Shown: piece after piece, positions 7,743-26,778 of the stretch
Layout: every line of letters starts with the position of its first letter
Position numbering within the stretch: the stretch's first letter is position 1
IMG/VR virus record: IMGVR_UViG_2534681675_000014
Origin: a virus
Lineage: Duplodnaviria; Heunggongvirae; Uroviricota; Caudoviricetes
Length of the DNA: 51,064 nt
Direction: 5' to 3' (one strand)
The notes under the pieces: model-generated
What the model was told of the DNA's origin: nothing
What the model saw: only the letters and a program-made list of their open reading frames with translations
Database searches by the model: none
Translations under genes and position numbers: made by a program

Positions 7743-8381
7743 TTAAATATCTTGTTGAATTTTAAAGCATACGCCCAATATGCAAGATAGATCATCCAGC
7801 ATAATTGAAGGGTAGCGAGGATTCGTGGGGACTAAAAGAATATCCGGCCCTTCTATCTCCAGTTTACGAATGACAGGTGTTGTGGTCCCTTTGGGTAAGG
7901 CAAGGACAATATTTCCTGGTTGTACGGTTCGATCGGGATCAACAAAAACTGTTGAACCATTTGGGATGGAAACTCCCCCACCAGATGTTGACATACTGTC
8001 ACTCTCTAGAACAACTGCAAAGGTATTGGCCGGGATTTCTCCGACAAGCTGCACACAAGAGGTTATTGAGGAATTTTTCATATAATCACTCCAGCTTGCT
8101 GCCTGCTGAAGTGATAGTAGCGGAACCGTTTTTATCGGCGGTAAAGATAGATCAAGCGAATCACCTGTATTTAACTCTCCTCCATTAAGAAGCCAATTTT
8201 CGTTTACTTTCAATATCTTTGCCAGTGAACTTATGTAACGCGAGGACGGCGCTCCTCCACCGTTCATCCATTGACTTACGGAGCCTTTTGATGCGCCAGT
8301 GGCATTGACAAGGTCTTTGCCTTTCAGGTTTAGCGCATGCATACGTTGGGTTATGCGTTCAGATATTGTTTGCTTGCTCAT
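7743..8381 (-). CDS. CI-type prophage repressor (N-terminal HTH, C-terminal LexA/S24-like autopeptidase)
   Basis: 212 aa; N-terminus SERITQRMHALNLKGKDLVNATGASKGSVSQW is HTH-like; C-terminal half S24-peptidase-like; divergent from cro-like gene; ATG directly abuts operator repeats. Confidence 0.75.
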   Translation of the reverse strand: MSKQTISERITQRMHALNLKGKDLVNATGASKGSVSQWMNGGGAPSSRYISSLAKILKVNENWLLNGGELNTGDSLDLSLPPIKTVPLLSLQQAASWSDYMKNSSITSCVQLVGEIPANTFAVVLESDSMSTSGGGVSIPNGSTVFVDPDRTVQPGNIVLALPKGTTTPVIRKLEIEGPDILLVPTNPRYPSIMLDDLSCILGVCFKIQQDI

Positions 8382-8715: not shown

Positions 8716-9124
8716 ACACATCCGCATGGCGATGAATGCCTGGGCGCGTCCTGATGGCGAAAAAGTTCCAGCAGCTGGAATAACCCAGGCTTATTTTGAG
8801 TTGGGTATGACGTTTCCTGAACTGTATGACGACAGCCATCCGGAAGCCCTGGCTCGCAATACCCAGAAAATTTTCCGCTGGGTAGAGAAAGACACCCCTG
8901 ATGCAGTTGAAAAAATTCAGGCGTTGTTACCAGCGATCGAAAAGGCAATGCCACCTTTGCTGGTGGCCAGAATGCGCAGCCACAGTTCAGCTTATTTTCG
9001 GGAGCTGGTGGAGACGCGGGAGCGATTGGTGAGAGACGCTGATGATTTTGTCGCAGTGGCAATCGCCGGTTTCAATCAGATGAACCGTGGTGGCCCGGCA
9101 GGAAATGCTGTGGCAGTACATTGA
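8699..9124 (+). CDS. YdaT-like protein (141 aa)
   Basis: ATG 8699 with AAGGGGGG Shine-Dalgarno; starts MKIKHEHI as recalled for Rac YdaT; overlaps cro-like gene by 17 nt. Confidence 0.6.
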   Translation: MKIKHEHIRMAMNAWARPDGEKVPAAGITQAYFELGMTFPELYDDSHPEALARNTQKIFRWVEKDTPDAVEKIQALLPAIEKAMPPLLVARMRSHSSAYFRELVETRERLVRDADDFVAVAIAGFNQMNRGGPAGNAVAVH

Positions 9125-9195: not shown

Positions 9196-10278
9196 ATGGC
9201 TAACGCCTGGCTCAGATTATGGCATGACATGCCAAATGACCCTAAGTGGCGAACAATTGCCAGGGTGTCAGGGCAGCCAATTGCAACAGTGATGGCAGTG
9301 TATATCCACCTCCTGGTGAGCGCGTCACGAAATGTCACGCGAGGTCACATTGATATCACGACAGAAGATTTGGCAAGTGCGCTCGACGTGACAGAAGAGG
9401 TAATTGATTCAATTTTGCAGACGATGCAGGGGCGGGTACTTGATGGTGATTTAATCACTGGATGGGAAAAACGCCAGGTGCTTAAAGAGGACAACGGCAA
9501 TATTTCGCAAACCGCAAAATCTCCTGCAGAGCGCAAGAGGGCGCAGCGAGAGAGGGAAAGAAAGCGGGAACAAAATGGCGATTGTCACGGCGCGTCACGA
9601 AATGTCACGCACATGTCACGACGAGTCACGACAGATAAAGATACAGATAAAGATACAGATAAAGATACAGATCAAGAAGATCAAAATACTATGGTCCATG
9701 GCGTAAAAAACGCCACGAACCAGGCAGGGGATGTTCAGACCGTCAATCCTGGTCAGCCAGCAGGCACGACACCGGAAGCCGATTCAGCGTATGCGCTGAA
9801 AGCCGATTCGGGCGCTGTGCAGCAGGTGATGACCGCAAGGCCGGAGCAATCACACCAACTGCAGCAGCCTGAAGCCGATTCCGCCATTCAGCGGGAAGCC
9901 GATCGGGTAGTCCCGGAAAACACCGGGCAGTCTGTGGGACGAGTGGATTATCCGGATGTGTTCGAACAGGTCTGGCGGGAGTACCCGTTGCGTGCCGGGG
10001 CAAACCCGAAGAAATCCGCTTTCAGTGCCTGGAAGGCCAGATTACGTGAGGGGGTGCCACCAGAGGCCATGCTGGATGGCGTTAGGCGTTACGCAAGATA
10101 CCTGGCGGCTACCGGGAAAACGGGAACGGAATTTGTTCAGCGAGCGACGACGTTTTTTGGACCGGACCGGAATTTTGAGAACCCCTGGTTGCTCCCGGTA
10201 AGCGGCACGAACAACCAGCGTTGTGTGAATCATATTTCTGAACCGGATACCGAAATTCCGCCTGGCTTCAGGGGGTAA
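9196..10278 (+). CDS. Putative replication initiator (O-like), iteron-containing
   Basis: 360 aa from ATG 9196; position after the immunity switch; internal GTCACG iterons and DKDT-repeat linker; acidic/basic linker then C-terminal domain. Confidence 0.55.
   Translation: MANAWLRLWHDMPNDPKWRTIARVSGQPIATVMAVYIHLLVSASRNVTRGHIDITTEDLASALDVTEEVIDSILQTMQGRVLDGDLITGWEKRQVLKEDNGNISQTAKSPAERKRAQRERERKREQNGDCHGASRNVTHMSRRVTTDKDTDKDTDKDTDQEDQNTMVHGVKNATNQAGDVQTVNPGQPAGTTPEADSAYALKADSGAVQQVMTARPEQSHQLQQPEADSAIQREADRVVPENTGQSVGRVDYPDVFEQVWREYPLRAGANPKKSAFSAWKARLREGVPPEAMLDGVRRYARYLAATGKTGTEFVQRATTFFGPDRNFENPWLLPVSGTNNQRCVNHISEPDTEIPPGFRG
9321..9364. repeat. Iteron-like cluster 1 (GTCACG-type hexamers at about 10-bp phasing)
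   Basis: Hexamers at 9324, 9334, 9344, 9355; 20-mer cgcgtcacgaaatgtcacgc (9321..9340) repeated exactly at 9591..9610. Confidence 0.5.
9583..9670. repeat. Iteron-like cluster 2 plus three 12-bp tandem repeats (candidate origin core)
   Basis: GTCACG at 9584, 9594, 9604, 9615, 9625, then ataaagatacag x3 (9635..9670); inside the replication gene. Confidence 0.5.
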
Positions 10279-10318
10279 GTGCTGATTTCAGGTCATGAGG
10301 TAATTTTCAGGAGGACTT

Positions 10319-10723
10319 GTGGCAAAAGTTTTTACACAAGAAGAGCGAGAAAAAATTAAAGGGCAGGTTGTTGAACTCGTACGCCAGAGTGGGCGCGAGA
10401 CGTTACGACAACTGGAAGCTAAAACCGGGGCAACAAGATATCTGATGAGCGTTCTGGCCAGAGAGCTGGTTGCCAGTGGCGATGTATACAACTCTGGCTA
10501 CGGGTTATTCCCGTCAGAACAGGCTCGTAAGGACTGGCAAAATGCCCGCAAAAAACTCTCGAGGGCAAAGGTGAAGAAACCATCTGTGGTTGATCCGGAC
10601 CTTATCTGGTCATTACCTGACGGAGAAATACGTCGCTACGACAGGCGTCAGAACATGATTTGCCGTGAGTGCCGGGAAAGCAAAGGTATGCAGCGTATAC
10701 TAACGTTCTATTGGGGAATATAG
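10319..10723 (+). CDS. Hypothetical protein (134 aa)
   Basis: GTG start 4 nt after CAGGAGG Shine-Dalgarno; follows replication gene on same strand. Confidence 0.45.
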   Translation: MAKVFTQEEREKIKGQVVELVRQSGRETLRQLEAKTGATRYLMSVLARELVASGDVYNSGYGLFPSEQARKDWQNARKKLSRAKVKKPSVVDPDLIWSLPDGEIRRYDRRQNMICRECRESKGMQRILTFYWGI

Positions 10724-10738
10724 CCACTAAATAAGGTA

Positions 10739-11050
10739 ATGAACCAAATGAACACGGAAAAAGCGAAAACGCAGCTCAGGATAATGCTTGCCGGTCCGGC
10801 TGCGAGTTATGCGACACATTCACCAGCCATAAAAAAGGTTCTTGATGAACTGGAAGCCAAAGACAAGCGCATTGCAGAACTGGAGGCAAGGGAAGTCCAG
10901 CTACCGGCTGGCTATGAACTTCGATATGGACACCCGATAAATGCTGATGAGCGCCATGTCATGATACCTAAGGAAAATGGCAGCTGGATTTATCTGGCTG
11001 ATTTAGAGCGCGCACTACGTGTTGCTGGCATTCGCATCAAAGGAGAGTGA
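10739..11050 (+). CDS. Hypothetical protein (103 aa)
   Basis: ATG start; tightly packed in the replication/nin block. Confidence 0.45.
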   Translation: MNQMNTEKAKTQLRIMLAGPAASYATHSPAIKKVLDELEAKDKRIAELEAREVQLPAGYELRYGHPINADERHVMIPKENGSWIYLADLERALRVAGIRIKGE

Positions 11051-11051
11051 C

Positions 11052-11408
11052 GTGGAAATAAAACCAGAAGATGAGTTAAGTAATATTGTTTTATTTCCGG
11101 TAAAAGAAGATGATCCACGTAATCAGGTTAATTTTCTTTATGAGCCATCGGAAAGACCATATTGCCATCACGCTTCTGTCCGGGTTGATGAAAAAGAGCG
11201 TCAGGTCCGCTGTAAAATCTGCGGTGCAGTTGTGGAGCCGTTTGACTGGATGCTCTCTGTGGCGAAAAGAGAAAACAGACTGGCAGATAATGTAAGGCTA
11301 TTGCGTCAGGAGGAACGGGAAAGGCGGAAAAATATAGAAAAGCTAATTCAGATTGAGCGTAACGCAAAAGCGCGGATACGCAGAGCGACAAAATCCAGAA
11401 CTGAATAA
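11052..11408 (+). CDS. Hypothetical Cys/His-containing protein (118 aa)
   Basis: GTG 11052 with GGAG 6 nt upstream, 1 nt after previous stop; CHH...CKIC motif suggests a zinc ribbon; ORF track gives a longer 11019 start. Confidence 0.45.
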   Translation: MEIKPEDELSNIVLFPVKEDDPRNQVNFLYEPSERPYCHHASVRVDEKERQVRCKICGAVVEPFDWMLSVAKRENRLADNVRLLRQEERERRKNIEKLIQIERNAKARIRRATKSRTE

Positions 11409-11505
11409 TTAAATTTAGCACTGTTAAAAATTTAATCCTTAACCGGAGGGATTTCTGCACCCTCAGAACATCAGGAGGCCGCCTGAAAGGGCGGTGGAGA
11501 TAATA

Positions 11506-12027
11506 ATGGGAATAACTAAAGAACGATTGTTGGAAATAGCAAACCTTAGTGATTGGGCATTAAGTGATGAGAGAATTATTTCTCCTCATGCTTATGAGTC
11601 AGTTACAAGTATAGAAATAACAACAATGGCTAGAATGCTGCTTGGTTATTTCAAAATAGAAAATAAAAAACAGATGGATAGTAATGTTGATATATGTGAG
11701 ATTTTAGACGATTGGGGGGCTTGGGTTGTGGCTGGTAATAGTTCTATTGATTGGCAGGAAATAGCTGATAAATATAAAAATGTTGTTCCTCATGGTAAAA
11801 AATCACGTCGTCAGTGCAGCAATGATGAAGGGCGAGTTATTGACATTAGTATCCTTAGGTTAGAAAGATATAAGCAACAAGAATATGAGTTAATTGTTGC
11901 TCATTTTGTGATTGGTTTATCTCTTCGTGCTATTGCAAAGCAACAAGGATGTTCAGATGGAACAATTCGTAAAAGATTGCAAAAAGCCTTAGGTTTTTTG
12001 ACTGGATATATAGCAATTACCAGTTAA
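11506..12027 (+). CDS. Q-family antiterminator-like protein (QuuD/933W-Q-like), paralog 1
   Basis: 173 aa from ATG 11506 (GGTGGAG SD); motifs DDWGAWVV, KSRRQCSNDEG, LIVAHFVIGLSLRAIAKQQGCSDGTIRKRLQKA align with recalled DLP12 QuuD sequence. Confidence 0.6.
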   Translation: MGITKERLLEIANLSDWALSDERIISPHAYESVTSIEITTMARMLLGYFKIENKKQMDSNVDICEILDDWGAWVVAGNSSIDWQEIADKYKNVVPHGKKSRRQCSNDEGRVIDISILRLERYKQQEYELIVAHFVIGLSLRAIAKQQGCSDGTIRKRLQKALGFLTGYIAITS

Positions 12028-12665
12028 GAGTCAGCGGGTTTTTTACCAGTGTAATGGTATAAGGATACTCCCATGTGTCTTACATGATATGGAAGCGCTG
12101 TTGCTGGATGCTTTGTGATACTCTTAAAGCGGAGGGGAGAGCCTTCCGCTTCAATTTCTGCGTCCGAAACGGTCGTAGAGAAAAATTCTTTCCATTCATT
12201 GAATTTTACTGCTGATTTGTCAGACTTTATATAAATTAGAATTCCTCCATGATCGTCACGTGACGTACCCGTGCCGTAACGTTCGGTTAGCTGAATCCAG
12301 CCATTATGAATAGATTTGGGGCCTCTCCATAATTTTGCTTCACCGATCCATTCGAATTTTCCGAATTGATGTTTAACTAATAAATCAACGTGACCGCCAT
12401 GTTGAGTATCATGTTCAACATCATAAAACCTACCTTTCAGGAAATTTTTGATCGACGCTGTTAGCTCGTCCTCTCCCCACTTAGCATCTTGATAGAAGTG
12501 TTTGTCATTTTCTAAATTCTGAATAGCGTCGTCTAAATCTTCATAGAGTTGCTTTACAAAAATATTTTTGTCTGCAGCTAATTTTCTTTGAACCATTCCC
12601 CTAAATTCAGGATCCATTCTAATTAATGATTGAAGGTCTGCAGTACAGATGTTTACATCACTCAT
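12024..12665 (-). CDS. Hypothetical protein with PD-(D/E)xK-like nuclease motif (213 aa), operon gene 3
   Basis: ATG 12665 with GGAGAG SD; motif GHVDLLV...FEWIGEAK; stop overlaps the Q-paralog-1 stop; AT-rich. Confidence 0.55.
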   Translation of the reverse strand: MSDVNICTADLQSLIRMDPEFRGMVQRKLAADKNIFVKQLYEDLDDAIQNLENDKHFYQDAKWGEDELTASIKNFLKGRFYDVEHDTQHGGHVDLLVKHQFGKFEWIGEAKLWRGPKSIHNGWIQLTERYGTGTSRDDHGGILIYIKSDKSAVKFNEWKEFFSTTVSDAEIEAEGSPLRFKSITKHPATALPYHVRHMGVSLYHYTGKKPADS

Positions 12666-13086
12666 GCAGACTCTCCAAAAGACTCGAAGGAGTAAAGTAT
12701 GGATAAAGATACTGGCTAAAATTATCAACCAATTCGCCAGTTTCTGGATGGTAAAAACTTCCTGTGTCTAAAGCATAGGAAATAAGATCATCTTCAACTG
12801 GTATTGGTTCTTCCGTTAAATTATCAATGTATTGAAAATGCATATCCAATAGATGTGCTTTATAGCTAGATAAATAATCAGTTGCTTTTATTAGCAGGAT
12901 ATAGTCATCTTTCGTATCAGTTAGATAGGTCAAACCATTGATAAGGGTTTTGTATGTAAAGTGATTGATATTTTTAGCATCTTTACTAACCAGAAAAAGA
13001 AAAAGATCACGACACACACTGCGAACAGGATCATTAAAATCCTGCTCTATTTGCGTGATAATGTCGTGATATATACTCTTTTTCAT
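12658..13086 (-). CDS. Hypothetical acidic protein (142 aa), operon gene 2
   Basis: ATG overlaps upstream gene stop (ATGA at 13083..13086); stop 2 nt before gene 3 start; AT-rich. Confidence 0.5.
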   Translation of the reverse strand: MKKSIYHDIITQIEQDFNDPVRSVCRDLFLFLVSKDAKNINHFTYKTLINGLTYLTDTKDDYILLIKATDYLSSYKAHLLDMHFQYIDNLTEEPIPVEDDLISYALDTGSFYHPETGELVDNFSQYLYPYFTPSSLLESLHE

Positions 13087-14174
13087 TTATGGCCTGATGA
13101 TCTCGCTCTTCTTTTCTCTTCACAGGACTTAACAGAATCCAATATTTTTTCAACAATAAATATAATCGAATCAATGTTGTTACAGTTCTTCGCAATTGCC
13201 TCATGCAACCTAATTCTAGGATTATCAAGCATTGTCCTTTTCCCTGGTAATATTAACTCTACTGATAAAATATGTGAAGAACTTTGTGGTAAATCCCAAA
13301 TTTTTCCCAACTTAAACTTTGTCAATATTGGGCTTGCGGACTCTCCACTATGATGGTAAACATCTTGACGCAAACACTTTTGACTTGGTTTGAGTTTTAA
13401 AGAACTTGTATTGCCATCTGAGGTGATAAAAGATACATGAGAAATTCTGCCATCTACTTTCTCGTAAAGATCTTGTATTGAACCAAATAATTCAAGAGGA
13501 TTGTTTAAAATAACGCCAGCTTCTTTTTTTATAAAATTAGCCACAAGGTATTGTTGAGGCTGTGATTCACTTCTTGGAAGGATAGATAAATCAATCGTAA
13601 GAATTAATATTTTTTCTGCAGGCATTAGCATGATGGTATTAAAGCATTGCGTGACTTGGCGTGTTTTGCATTTTATTTCTCCACCATTAGCACGTAATTC
13701 CATACCCGCATCGCTAAGATGTGTTGGGTCAAGCTCTATCACTTCAGTGTAATACGCTTTGGATAAAAAAACAGCAGTGTCAATTTGTTTATCACGAATG
13801 ATATCTTGACGTAGTTCAGCAAAATGCAGCTCAGTATCAGCAACTAACAGCTCCTCTCTGGATAAAGGAGTTGGGTATTTTTCTGAGAAGGGGCTATTGT
13901 CCTTTTTCTGATTTGTGAAAATTGTTTGTAATTTTGCTACGTCTTCATCGGTGATTCTATAAATAGAAAGTAATCGATTCCCGCTAAAAATTAAACCTTT
14001 CCAGAAATCGTCGATTCTGTCTTTTAGGTCGGGATTATGCTGAACTACACTATTTACACGTTCAATAAAAAGGGGTAATCCTTGGGCCGTTACACCCAGT
14101 GATGAACCAAGAAGCTTACGGGTGTTGCGCCAGCCAAAGCGTGAATTGATGTTTTTTACTGTTTGCTCAAGCAT
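13083..14174 (-). CDS. Hypothetical protein (363 aa), operon gene 1
   Basis: ATG 14174 preceded by AAGGAAG SD (ORF track alternative GTG at 14180); AT-rich; no family recognised. Confidence 0.55.
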   Translation of the reverse strand: MLEQTVKNINSRFGWRNTRKLLGSSLGVTAQGLPLFIERVNSVVQHNPDLKDRIDDFWKGLIFSGNRLLSIYRITDEDVAKLQTIFTNQKKDNSPFSEKYPTPLSREELLVADTELHFAELRQDIIRDKQIDTAVFLSKAYYTEVIELDPTHLSDAGMELRANGGEIKCKTRQVTQCFNTIMLMPAEKILILTIDLSILPRSESQPQQYLVANFIKKEAGVILNNPLELFGSIQDLYEKVDGRISHVSFITSDGNTSSLKLKPSQKCLRQDVYHHSGESASPILTKFKLGKIWDLPQSSSHILSVELILPGKRTMLDNPRIRLHEAIAKNCNNIDSIIFIVEKILDSVKSCEEKRRARSSGHK

Positions 14175-14462
14175 TAACACTTCCTTAATTTTCCCTTAAC
14201 AATTTAGGGTGCTAAACTTTTTTGCGCAGTTTACACAAAAAAATAGTGCGTACGCAAAAACTATCTAACATGATGAGCTTTAACCGGGAAACTTGTATAT
14301 GTTGTGAGCATAAAGTTGGCTGAGAAATCTAAAACGGGTAGAATGACTGCGGGTGCTTGAGGCTATCTGCCTCGGGCATGAACACCAAAGGCAGATAGAG
14401 AAAAGCCCCAGTTAACATTACGCGTCCTGCAAGACGCTTAACATTAATCTGAGGCCAATTTC

Positions 14463-25683: not shown

Positions 25684-26778
25684 ATGAGCAGACCGGACTG
25701 GGGGGCGTTGCAGCAGGAGTATATTGCTGAATACACCCGCTCCGGTATATCTCCGGTGGCATGGTGTGAAGCAAGGGGACTGAACTACGCAACAGCCCGT
25801 CGTTACATCAAAAAAACTCCGAAAAATGCGCAGAAAGAAATGCGCAAAACTGCGCAAAAAAGTGCGCGAAAAAAAACTGCGCAGACTGCGCAAAGGCAGA
25901 ACGGAAAATCTCAGAAAAAAAAGGCTATATCCGATGCACTCCTGATTGAGGGGGACACGGAAGAAATTTCGTTCTGCCCCGATGAATTCGGTATTTCTGA
26001 CCAGCAGGCAAAATTCGCCATGTTGGTTGCTCAGGGGAAAAAGCCGACAGAGGCATACCGACTGGCTGGTTATGAGGGGCAAGGTGCGACAGCTAACAGC
26101 AACGCCAGCCGTATGCTTAGAAATGCCAGGGTTTATCGTGCTATCAGCTACTTCCGCAATCAGTACCAGAAACGCTATATCGCAGACCTGGATTTACTGG
26201 TGAGCCAGTTGATGGCCATTGTCCAGGCCGACCCCAATCAGTTGGCACAATTTCGCCGTGTTAACTGCCGTTATTGCTGGGGCGAGAATCATCTCTACCA
26301 GTGGCGTGATATTGCAGAATTCGATAAGGCTGCGGCACAGGCCTCCAGAGATGGTAAACCCGAGCCGGAATATGGAGGCCTCGGCTTTGTTGATAACGCC
26401 ATACCCAATCCTGATTGCCCGAAGTGCTGCGGTGAGGGAACAGGACAGCTTTATATGGCTGATACCACACTGCTTGATGGGGATGCGCGGCAATTATATG
26501 CAGGGTCAAAGCTCGGAAAATACGGTGTTGAGATCCTGCTGGAGGATAAGGCTGCCGCCCGGCGTGAATTGTTGCGTTTGTTTTCTGCTGGCGGGGCTTT
26601 ATGTGCAGATAAACGGCTACAGGAACTGGAAATTGAACGGCGCAGAATGGAAAACCAGAAGCTGCGCAAAGAGATCGAAACGGTGGAAGATAATGAACAT
26701 CCCCAGCCTGTGGCGATCAATATTAATGTGGTTGATGCCAGAGTAAGGAGTGATGAAGATGATCTCTCCGACGCTTAA
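25684..26778 (+). CDS. Terminase small subunit
   Basis: 364 aa directly upstream of terL; N-terminal HTH-like region, basic linker. Confidence 0.65.
   Translation: MSRPDWGALQQEYIAEYTRSGISPVAWCEARGLNYATARRYIKKTPKNAQKEMRKTAQKSARKKTAQTAQRQNGKSQKKKAISDALLIEGDTEEISFCPDEFGISDQQAKFAMLVAQGKKPTEAYRLAGYEGQGATANSNASRMLRNARVYRAISYFRNQYQKRYIADLDLLVSQLMAIVQADPNQLAQFRRVNCRYCWGENHLYQWRDIAEFDKAAAQASRDGKPEPEYGGLGFVDNAIPNPDCPKCCGEGTGQLYMADTTLLDGDARQLYAGSKLGKYGVEILLEDKAAARRELLRLFSAGGALCADKRLQELEIERRRMENQKLRKEIETVEDNEHPQPVAININVVDARVRSDEDDLSDA

Follow-up and report, generated by a model that had tools for sequence, protein, structure and literature searches.

Where does a lambdoid prophage begin to copy its DNA when its replication module is of the "initiator-only" type? 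The question is raised by the virus record IMGVR_UViG_2534681675_000014 (IMG/VR; Caudoviricetes), a stretch of 51,064 nucleotides referred to here as the window, in which the gene of a 360-residue replication initiator carries two arrays of short, evenly spaced direct repeats (iterons) and a periodic A/T-rich tract. On comparative evidence, these repeats are proposed to mark the site where replication of the prophage starts, inside the very gene that encodes its initiator, and this is considered quite probable. In the best reading, array 2 and the hexamer tract next to it would form the core origin, serving binding and unwinding, and array 1 would be an auxiliary or control platform. A candidate origin inside this gene had been put forward in a preliminary description of the window; the proposal is supported by selection at the DNA level, co-variation of the two arrays, their linkage to the N-terminal domain, their position at a joint where protein modules have been swapped, and the recurrence of the layout, with different iterons, at locus L061, whose N-domain shows no detectable homology. 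The elements concerned are the following.

9196..10278, plus strand: initiator gene, 360 aa, "phage replisome organizer", phrog_3729 (open reading frame with translation, PHROG match)
9320..9360, plus strand: iteron array 1, four direct repeats, encoding the loop S44-T55 (SRNVTRGHIDIT) of the N-terminal domain
9387..9392, minus strand: single inverted iteron copy, 27 bp past array 1
9517..9573, plus strand: coding sequence of the basic helix KSPAERKRAQRERERKREQ (aa 108-126), in which K114 and Q117 co-vary with iteron class
9584..9630, plus strand: iteron array 2, five GTCACG direct repeats, within the coding sequence of the disordered linker; the origin-proximal array
9631..9690, plus strand: A/T-rich, purine-rich tract with hexamer periodicity (ACAGAT/AAAGAT), candidate DNA-unwinding element
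9692..9722, no strand assigned: inverted repeat with 13-bp arms and a 5-nt loop, TGGTCCATGGCGT AAAAA ACGCCACGAACCA, directly past the A/T-rich tract
10204..10275, plus strand: coding sequence of the C-terminal tail GTNNQRCVNHISEPDTEIPPGFRG (aa 337-360), similar to the C-terminal tail of Escherichia coli DnaT

The two phased GTCACG clusters of the preliminary description were confirmed at their positions, with spacings of 10-11 bp. Array 1 consists of GTCACG at 9324, GTCACG at 9334, GTCACA at 9344 and ATCACG at 9355 (spacings 10, 10 and 11 bp); the GTCACG units of array 2 start at 9584, 9594, 9604, 9615 and 9625 (spacings 10, 10, 11 and 10 bp). The iteron consensus is aaTGTCACGc, with a core of 6 bp and a period of 10-11 bp. 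The repeat formerly given as a 20-mer at 9321 and 9591 is exact, but it is a 21-mer, GCGCGTCACGAAATGTCACGC, present at 9320 and 9590. Eight copies of GTCACG occur within 310 bp, against three or fewer in 200 Markov-2 simulations, and the pattern GTCACN{4,6}GTCAC has six matches in 51 kb, every one inside the initiator gene, where 0.13 were expected. Chance is excluded as the source of the repeats, both counts being far above expectation. The same pattern scan revealed no phased array elsewhere in the 51-kb window, beyond which the prophage may extend. The two clusters are both real, but they are not equivalent: only array 2 adjoins an A/T-rich tract, whereas array 1 has no such tract beside it and is viewed as a separate, putatively auxiliary array. 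The inverted copy at 9387-9392, the inverted repeat at 9692-9722 and the location of array 1 inside the coding sequence of an N-terminal domain loop had not been listed previously.

The A/T-rich stretch reported past the second cluster was found as described. The G+C content drops to 0.28 at 9630-9689, and no 40-bp duplex in the gene is less stable than that at 9635-9674, which ranks at the 99.5th percentile of the window as a whole. The tract at 9631-9690 is 72-73% A+T and 72-74% purine on the top strand, and it starts exactly 8 nt past the G of the last iteron of array 2. Tandem Repeats Finder returned a 12-bp unit, ACAGATAAAGAT, in 3.9 copies with 97% matches at 9631-9677. Three 12-bp tandem repeats had been described here; they are present, although the 12-mer is in reality a purine-rich tract with a period of 6 bp. 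The tract encodes TTDKDTDKDTDKDTD (TDKD repeats), part of a linker, as had been proposed, and located within the disordered residues 129-248. E. coli prophages differ in how many copies of the 12-mer they carry. Two GATC (Dam) sites are located at the distal end of the tract (9670-9673 and 9679-9682), and an input from SeqA or Dam at these sites is possible. In several enterobacterial relatives the tract ends in AAAGATCTAAAA.

The inverted repeat that follows at 9692-9722 is part of the C-terminal module that can be exchanged, codes for the conserved peptide MVHGxKNAT and ranks among the top 4% most stable 44-nt windows of the open reading frame. Besides the window, L061 and several further loci have the palindrome. 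A controlled test of 40 loci gave a weak result for it as a third conserved element (median empirical p 0.40; Kolmogorov-Smirnov p 0.03), and it is therefore not claimed as a feature of the family.

Array 1 lies within the N-domain coding sequence, and the codons beneath it permit selection on DNA to be told apart from selection on peptide. In 19 genes of the GTCACG class, aligned without gaps over aa 5-99, normalised codon entropy was 0.14 under array 1 and 0.81 elsewhere (Mann-Whitney p = 1.8e-6). V47 is GTC in 19/19 genes, T48 is ACG in 19/19, G50 is GGT in 19/19, H51 is CAC in 19/19, V54 is GTC in 18/18 and T55 is ACG in 19/19, whereas the conserved residues flanking the array use many synonymous codons. 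V65, written GTG in 17/17, marks the inverted copy at 9387-9392 as conserved as well. Successive units of array 1 fall in all three reading frames (S-R, V-T, G-H, I/V-T); with a period of 10-11 bp and a changing frame, no repeated peptide explains the iterons. On these sequence comparisons, the arrays are considered to be under selection at the DNA level. The loop has a role in the protein too and is not merely a passive spacer, since R49-G50 (9340-9346), in the middle of it, is near-invariant across iteron classes, even in relatives without array 1 (ERG motif).

A scan of one genome per species yielded 60 loci with a homologous N-terminal domain, from Enterobacterales, Pseudomonas, Aeromonas-like bacteria, Bordetella, Acidovorax, Variovorax, Sphingomonas and others (gamma-, beta- and alpha-proteobacteria). 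In almost every locus, the hexamer that occurs most often in the reading frame is grouped into two clusters, one near nt 128-160 of the gene and the other near nt 360-480, with units 10-11 bp apart. The hexamer differs by lineage (GTCACG, GTAACG or CGAACG) and is identical in both clusters of a given gene; in 40/56 analysable loci, one and the same NNNACG hexamer is the most frequent in both clusters and has two or more copies in each. The comparison of iteron number among relatives that had been recommended earlier shows that it varies, from 2 to 6 units in array 1 and 3-6 copies in array 2, whose position stays constant. The first cluster of L055 and L057 lies elsewhere in the N-domain, which speaks for a feature of the DNA rather than of the peptide. 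The inverted copy is also recurrent, GTGAC being present at the same offset in most loci of the GTCAC class. Regardless of iteron class, array 2 gives way to a tract of 24-60 nt that is rich in purines and in A/T and has a 6-bp period (typically AGATAA/AGATAC/AGAGAA). AGA stands exactly 8 nt past the G of the last iteron in 23/25 GTCAC-class loci, as GTCACGACAGATAAAGAT or GTCACGCTAGATAAAGAT. The tract is mostly in the D-K reading frame, but it is also found in the other two frames. In the longer relatives L043 and L054 (Serratia, Pantoea; 396-434 aa), ACTACGTA-type repeats and an inserted segment replace the usual array 2 and hexamer tract.

The arrays are inherited together with one part of the protein. 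In O157-type proteins (P0068, P0088, P0105) the N-domain, both arrays and the TDKD tract are kept and are followed by a C-terminus with a DnaT domain. P0103 has this C-terminus joined to lambda P; a lambda P fusion or neighbour was found only in this O157-type protein. P0032-type proteins share everything from just past the tract onward and possess another N-domain. These two kinds of swap place a recombination joint at the end of the A/T-rich tract, comparable to the one that separates the halves of lambda O. Judged from such sequences, the N-domain, both arrays and the A/T-rich tract are inherited as one module. Among the 60 loci, the iterons co-occur with DUF977 in 2, with the cII-like gene in 6 and with the window-type C-domain in 5; only the N-domain travels with them. 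The DNA encoding P0032 is locus L061 (E. coli GCA_038071335.1). Its C-domain is the same as that of the window initiator, and its N-domain has no homology to the window initiator family detectable by hhalign (probability 0.2%). L061 contains three AAGGGGCTT iterons with an 11-bp period (1684-1716) inside the part encoding the N-domain, three further AAGGGGCTT units 256 bp downstream (1940-1972), purine-rich hexamer repeats at 1979-2018 and then the palindrome as at window positions 9692-9722. The two-array layout at this locus points to a design and not to an accident of one lineage.

The initiator is composed of an N-terminal helical, winged-helix-like domain (aa 1-95), a basic helix (aa 108-126), a linker (aa 129-248), a helical domain (aa 250-336) and the DnaT-like tail. 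The AlphaFold2 model, which has a low overall confidence (mean predicted local distance difference test score, pLDDT, 58.6), shows helices at 2-45, a low-confidence loop at 46-55, two helices and a hairpin at 56-85 that resemble a winged helix, a basic helix at 110-126, disorder at 129-248 and a helical C-domain at 254-320. The loop 46-55 (pLDDT < 50) is exactly the peptide encoded by array 1. The disordered region holds array 2, the TDKD tract and the variable linker, with array 2 and the A/T-rich tract encoding aa 130-165. A Foldseek search against the PDB gave nothing with E < 1, the weak matches being generic winged-helix regulators and 4pta. Given the poor model and the lack of a significant match, the domain can be called at most a helical N-domain, possibly of winged-helix type. 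PF09681 (Phage_rep_org_N) aligned from its positions 1-119 of 121 to residues 5-123, with E = 0.0093 and 16.4 bits, below the cut-off of 23.3; it was matched in 9/27 relatives (best 9e-4). The TIGR01714 match had E = 0.018. No AAA+ or DnaA domain was found in the initiator. The disordered linker contains PEADSA... two times, encoded by a 36-nt direct repeat (9772-9807 and 9868-9903) whose copies are 75% identical and lie 96 bp apart; homologues of 324-330 aa are without one copy or the intervening segment.

The preliminary description took the N-terminal domain to be the reader of the iterons. Leaving aside the loop that the iterons encode, the iteron classes are distinguished by residues 114 and 117 of the basic helix, not by residues in the body of the N-domain. 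The helix reads R-K-x-x-Q-R with GTCAC, R-A/S-K-x-W-R with CGAAC and R-V-x-x-Y/F-R with GTAAC. In L037 the N-domain is near that of the CGAAC-type L049, yet the units are GTCAC and the helix contains RKRQQR, an independent switch. The basic helix (aa 108-126) is thus a candidate iteron-specificity element. Since array 2 directly adjoins the coding sequence of the helix, this correlation is no more than suggestive.

At the other end of the protein, the tail (aa 337-360) matched 6aep, 2ru8 and 9zbt with E = 0.02-0.07 and positions 156-179 of 179 of NF002770. The end of the initiator, ...ISEPDTEIPPGFRG, is close to that of E. coli DnaT, ...SEPDNHIPPGFRG. The tail (IPxGFRG) is kept even in relatives that are only about 47% identical. 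Elsewhere in the C-domain, no known family was matched by profile searches of the PDB and Pfam. The DnaT-like tail may be how a phage with neither helicase nor loader taps the host primosome; a DnaT-like recruitment of the helicase would be suggested by similarity over 24 residues only. A published preprimosome structure assigned no role to the C-terminal tail of DnaT (PMC13377028).

Replication might start at this site in the following way. The initiator would bind one face of the DNA at the phased iterons, 10-11 bp apart, through its N-terminal region and especially the basic helix. Array 2 (9584-9630) would set the initiator oligomer directly against the hexamer tract at 9631-9690, where the strands would open. 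Array 1, located 260-270 bp upstream, would provide a second binding platform together with the one inverted copy. Its most likely effect would be to raise the local concentration of the initiator, or to loop or wrap the intervening DNA and so aid opening; alternatively, it could act in copy control, in a handcuffing-like manner. The exchangeable C-terminal domain, with its DnaT-like tail, would then bring in the helicase machinery of the host.

A further proposal, which must be regarded as speculative and has perhaps a modest chance of being right, is that the locus represents a distinct and widespread origin design of non-AAA+ phage initiators, combining a register-locked tract read as single-stranded DNA, an obligatory second array and a plan independent of homology. 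Hypothetically, the iteron-bound initiator or the DnaT-like C-terminus would read the AGATAA-type repeat as single-stranded DNA, and the repeat would then be the functional counterpart of the DnaA-box/DnaA-trio system of unwinding. The second array, about 260 bp upstream, would be written into the coding sequence of the DNA-binding region of the initiator, and the plan of L061 would point to a mechanical requirement (a loop or wrap of about 260 bp), not to shared ancestry. If this were true, any switch in iteron specificity would alter the two cis sites and a portion of the protein simultaneously.

Several observations weigh against the proposed origin and its reading by the initiator. No DnaA box (TTATNCACA, with at most one mismatch) was found at 9196-10223, and an input from the host initiator beside the repeats is therefore unsupported. 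The fold of the initiator is not confidently assigned (mean pLDDT as above; best Foldseek E about 1). The correlation of residues 114 and 117 with iteron class is confounded by physical linkage and phylogeny, and L023 is an exception to it, with Y alongside GTCAC. Array 1 is absent in the L027, L030 and L041 subfamilies. Among relatives the distance between the arrays, calculated from offsets, is 249, 258 or 267 bp; these values differ by multiples of 9 bp, and helical phasing between the arrays was accordingly rejected, no phase being conserved. Finally, no description of the origin of this initiator family was found in the searchable literature, which mostly leaves subscription journals uncovered, such that an older account is possible.

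Among other explanations, the one that survives best holds the arrays to be initiator sites for autoregulation, copy-number control, handcuffing or a fork barrier, with the origin elsewhere in the prophage. Plasmids such as P1 or F do have separate sets of origin and control iterons, reminiscent of the two arrays here, and array 1 has no A/T-rich neighbour. In SPP1, oriR is a further binding site of G38P, at which forks are presumed to stall (PMC6316719). This explanation is nevertheless held to be unlikely: array 2 adjoins the least stable duplex of the gene in a fixed register, the signature of a core origin, the 51-kb window has no other phased array, and the arrays and the A/T-rich tract are inherited with the N-domain as one module.

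It is less likely still that the repeats are bound by another factor, be it a host protein, the DUF977/LygF product or the cII-like protein, in place of the encoded initiator. The DUF977 product has a weak PHROG match to "DNA binding protein", and GTGACA, the iteron read on the opposite strand, is similar to a -35 hexamer. Iteron complements might thus form an antisense promoter within the gene; one weak promoter-like site was scored on the minus strand (9608-9581), but such matches are not above the shuffled expectation and this reading was rejected. The DUF977 and cII-like genes accompany the arrays in just 2/60 and 6/60 loci, and for want of co-occurrence the neighbouring genes were ruled out as the source of the iteron binder. 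Moreover, the hosts belong to three proteobacterial classes, yet the iteron type tracks the initiator lineage and residues 114 and 117.

That the repeats simply reflect a repetitive or low-complexity stretch of protein, or slippage during replication, and are devoid of cis-acting function, is very improbable and already contradicted: the number of 12-bp units does differ between strains in the manner of slippage and the repeat segments do encode disordered or loop regions, but successive units stand in different frames, synonymous sites are frozen under the array while neighbouring codons drift, a change of hexamer affects both arrays at once, the AGATAA-type tract persists in more than one frame, and the same layout recurs in the L061 initiator, whose N-domain has no detectable homology.

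The initiator gene is part of a lambdoid immunity and replication region at 7.7-12 kb of the window, in which the neighbouring genes are the following.

7743-8381, minus strand: cI-like repressor
Within the 7.7-12 kb region: P22-Cro-like gene
End at 9124: YdaT/cII-like gene
10319-10723: DUF977/LygF "Ren-like" gene
Between the DUF977/LygF gene and Q: two small open reading frames
11494-12027: Q antiterminator

The PHROG match of the 360-aa protein to phrog_3729, "replication initiation protein", has E = 9e-256, near-identical copies are named "phage replisome organizer" by NCBI, and no Pfam family was assigned at E ≤ 0.01. No P-, DnaC- or DnaB-type gene was found between the initiator and Q (9196-12027). 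Initiator-only modules were reported in 34/314 lambdoid phages and described as not understood and never experimentally studied (PMC12315714, 2025). Near-identical DNA is present in the Escherichia phages Tritos, Evi, 204576 and vB_EcoS-640R1, and the replication module was detected in 1715/5426 complete E. coli genomes (32%). Relatives are spread across the Proteobacteria. Directly past Q, three genes (234, 142 and 365 aa) are located on the minus strand at 12024-14180, opposing the transcription flow, which is a typical position for morons; a PADLOC scan of these three genes gave no matches. A perfect palindrome, GTCACGTGAC, at 12255-12264 carries the iteron hexamer head to head and is isolated. 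The sole other site in the window with at least four copies of one hexamer (TGCGCA) in 60 bp is located at about 25824-25884.

The prophage type is very common in E. coli. Defining its probable origin and the putative determinants of specificity provides a minimal replicon that is directly testable. The relatives offer a natural series of orthogonal initiator/iteron pairs (GTCACG, GTAACG, CGAACG and AAGGGGCTT) and a system in which to ask how a phage without helicase or loader recruits the DnaB of its host. The plan of two arrays with a hexamer tract in fixed register is not part of current models of phage origins.

Origins inside initiator genes have been experimentally defined for lambda and the Stx phages, in gene O (PMC7466680), and for oriL of SPP1, in gene 38 (PMC5737612, PMC6316719). 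As in lambda and the Stx phages 933W and P27, the putative origin of the window lies in the middle of the initiator gene, between the parts for the DNA-binding N-domain and the partner-recruiting C-domain; in those phages too, extra iterons add residues to the protein, and N-domain and ori are swapped as one specificity module (PMC7466680). Several iterons directly followed by an A/T-rich tract are a further likeness. Origins of the lambda type have four to six iterons, about 18-19 bp long and with internal dyad symmetry, whereas the units here are direct, 10-11 bp in period and 6 bp in core, and without dyad. A palindrome is found to the right of the A/T-rich region of lambda ori, and the inverted repeat at 9692-9722 recalls it. 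The initiator of the window has no match to PF04492 (lambda O), and no P gene is found downstream, where the DUF977/Ren-like gene, two small open reading frames and Q follow. A second array inside the N-domain coding sequence and an A/T-rich tract of regularly repeated hexamers, whose register to the last iteron is fixed, are further differences from lambda. The resemblance to lambda ori that was drawn in the preliminary description thus holds as an analogy of layout; the locus is not a member of the lambda O/P family, since iteron type, initiator family and partner gene all differ.

With SPP1 oriL the locus has in common direct repeats, there bound by the initiator, and an adjacent A/T-rich DNA-unwinding element within the initiator's own gene (PMC5737612, PMC6316719). 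G38P is likewise a non-AAA+ initiator, and the name "phage replisome organizer" was given to the window protein by NCBI. The SPP1-type family PF09681/TIGR01714 aligns to the window initiator from end to end, but below threshold (16.4 bits vs 23.3). SPP1 encodes a loader and a helicase (G39P, G40P), neither of which was found at 8.4-12 kb of the window, and has a second, distant origin, oriR, the like of which was not seen in the 51 kb.

Iteron plasmids (P1 oriR, F, RK2, R6K, pPS10) similarly possess phased direct iterons beside an unwinding element with short repeats. Control iterons may be located at a distance in these plasmids, some carry GATC sites in the unwinding element, and Rep can bind one strand of it. 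Their iterons are 17-22 bp long and outside the rep coding sequence, and DnaA boxes, absent here, are usual. A Rep-like fold of the initiator is unsupported, as the fold search gave no significant match to solved structures. With a hexamer (AGATAA/AGATAC) in place of a trinucleotide and an initiator that is not AAA+, the arrangement also resembles the DnaA boxes and DnaA-trio of bacterial oriC, where unwinding starts at a short-period repeat on one strand, a set distance beyond the double-strand sites.

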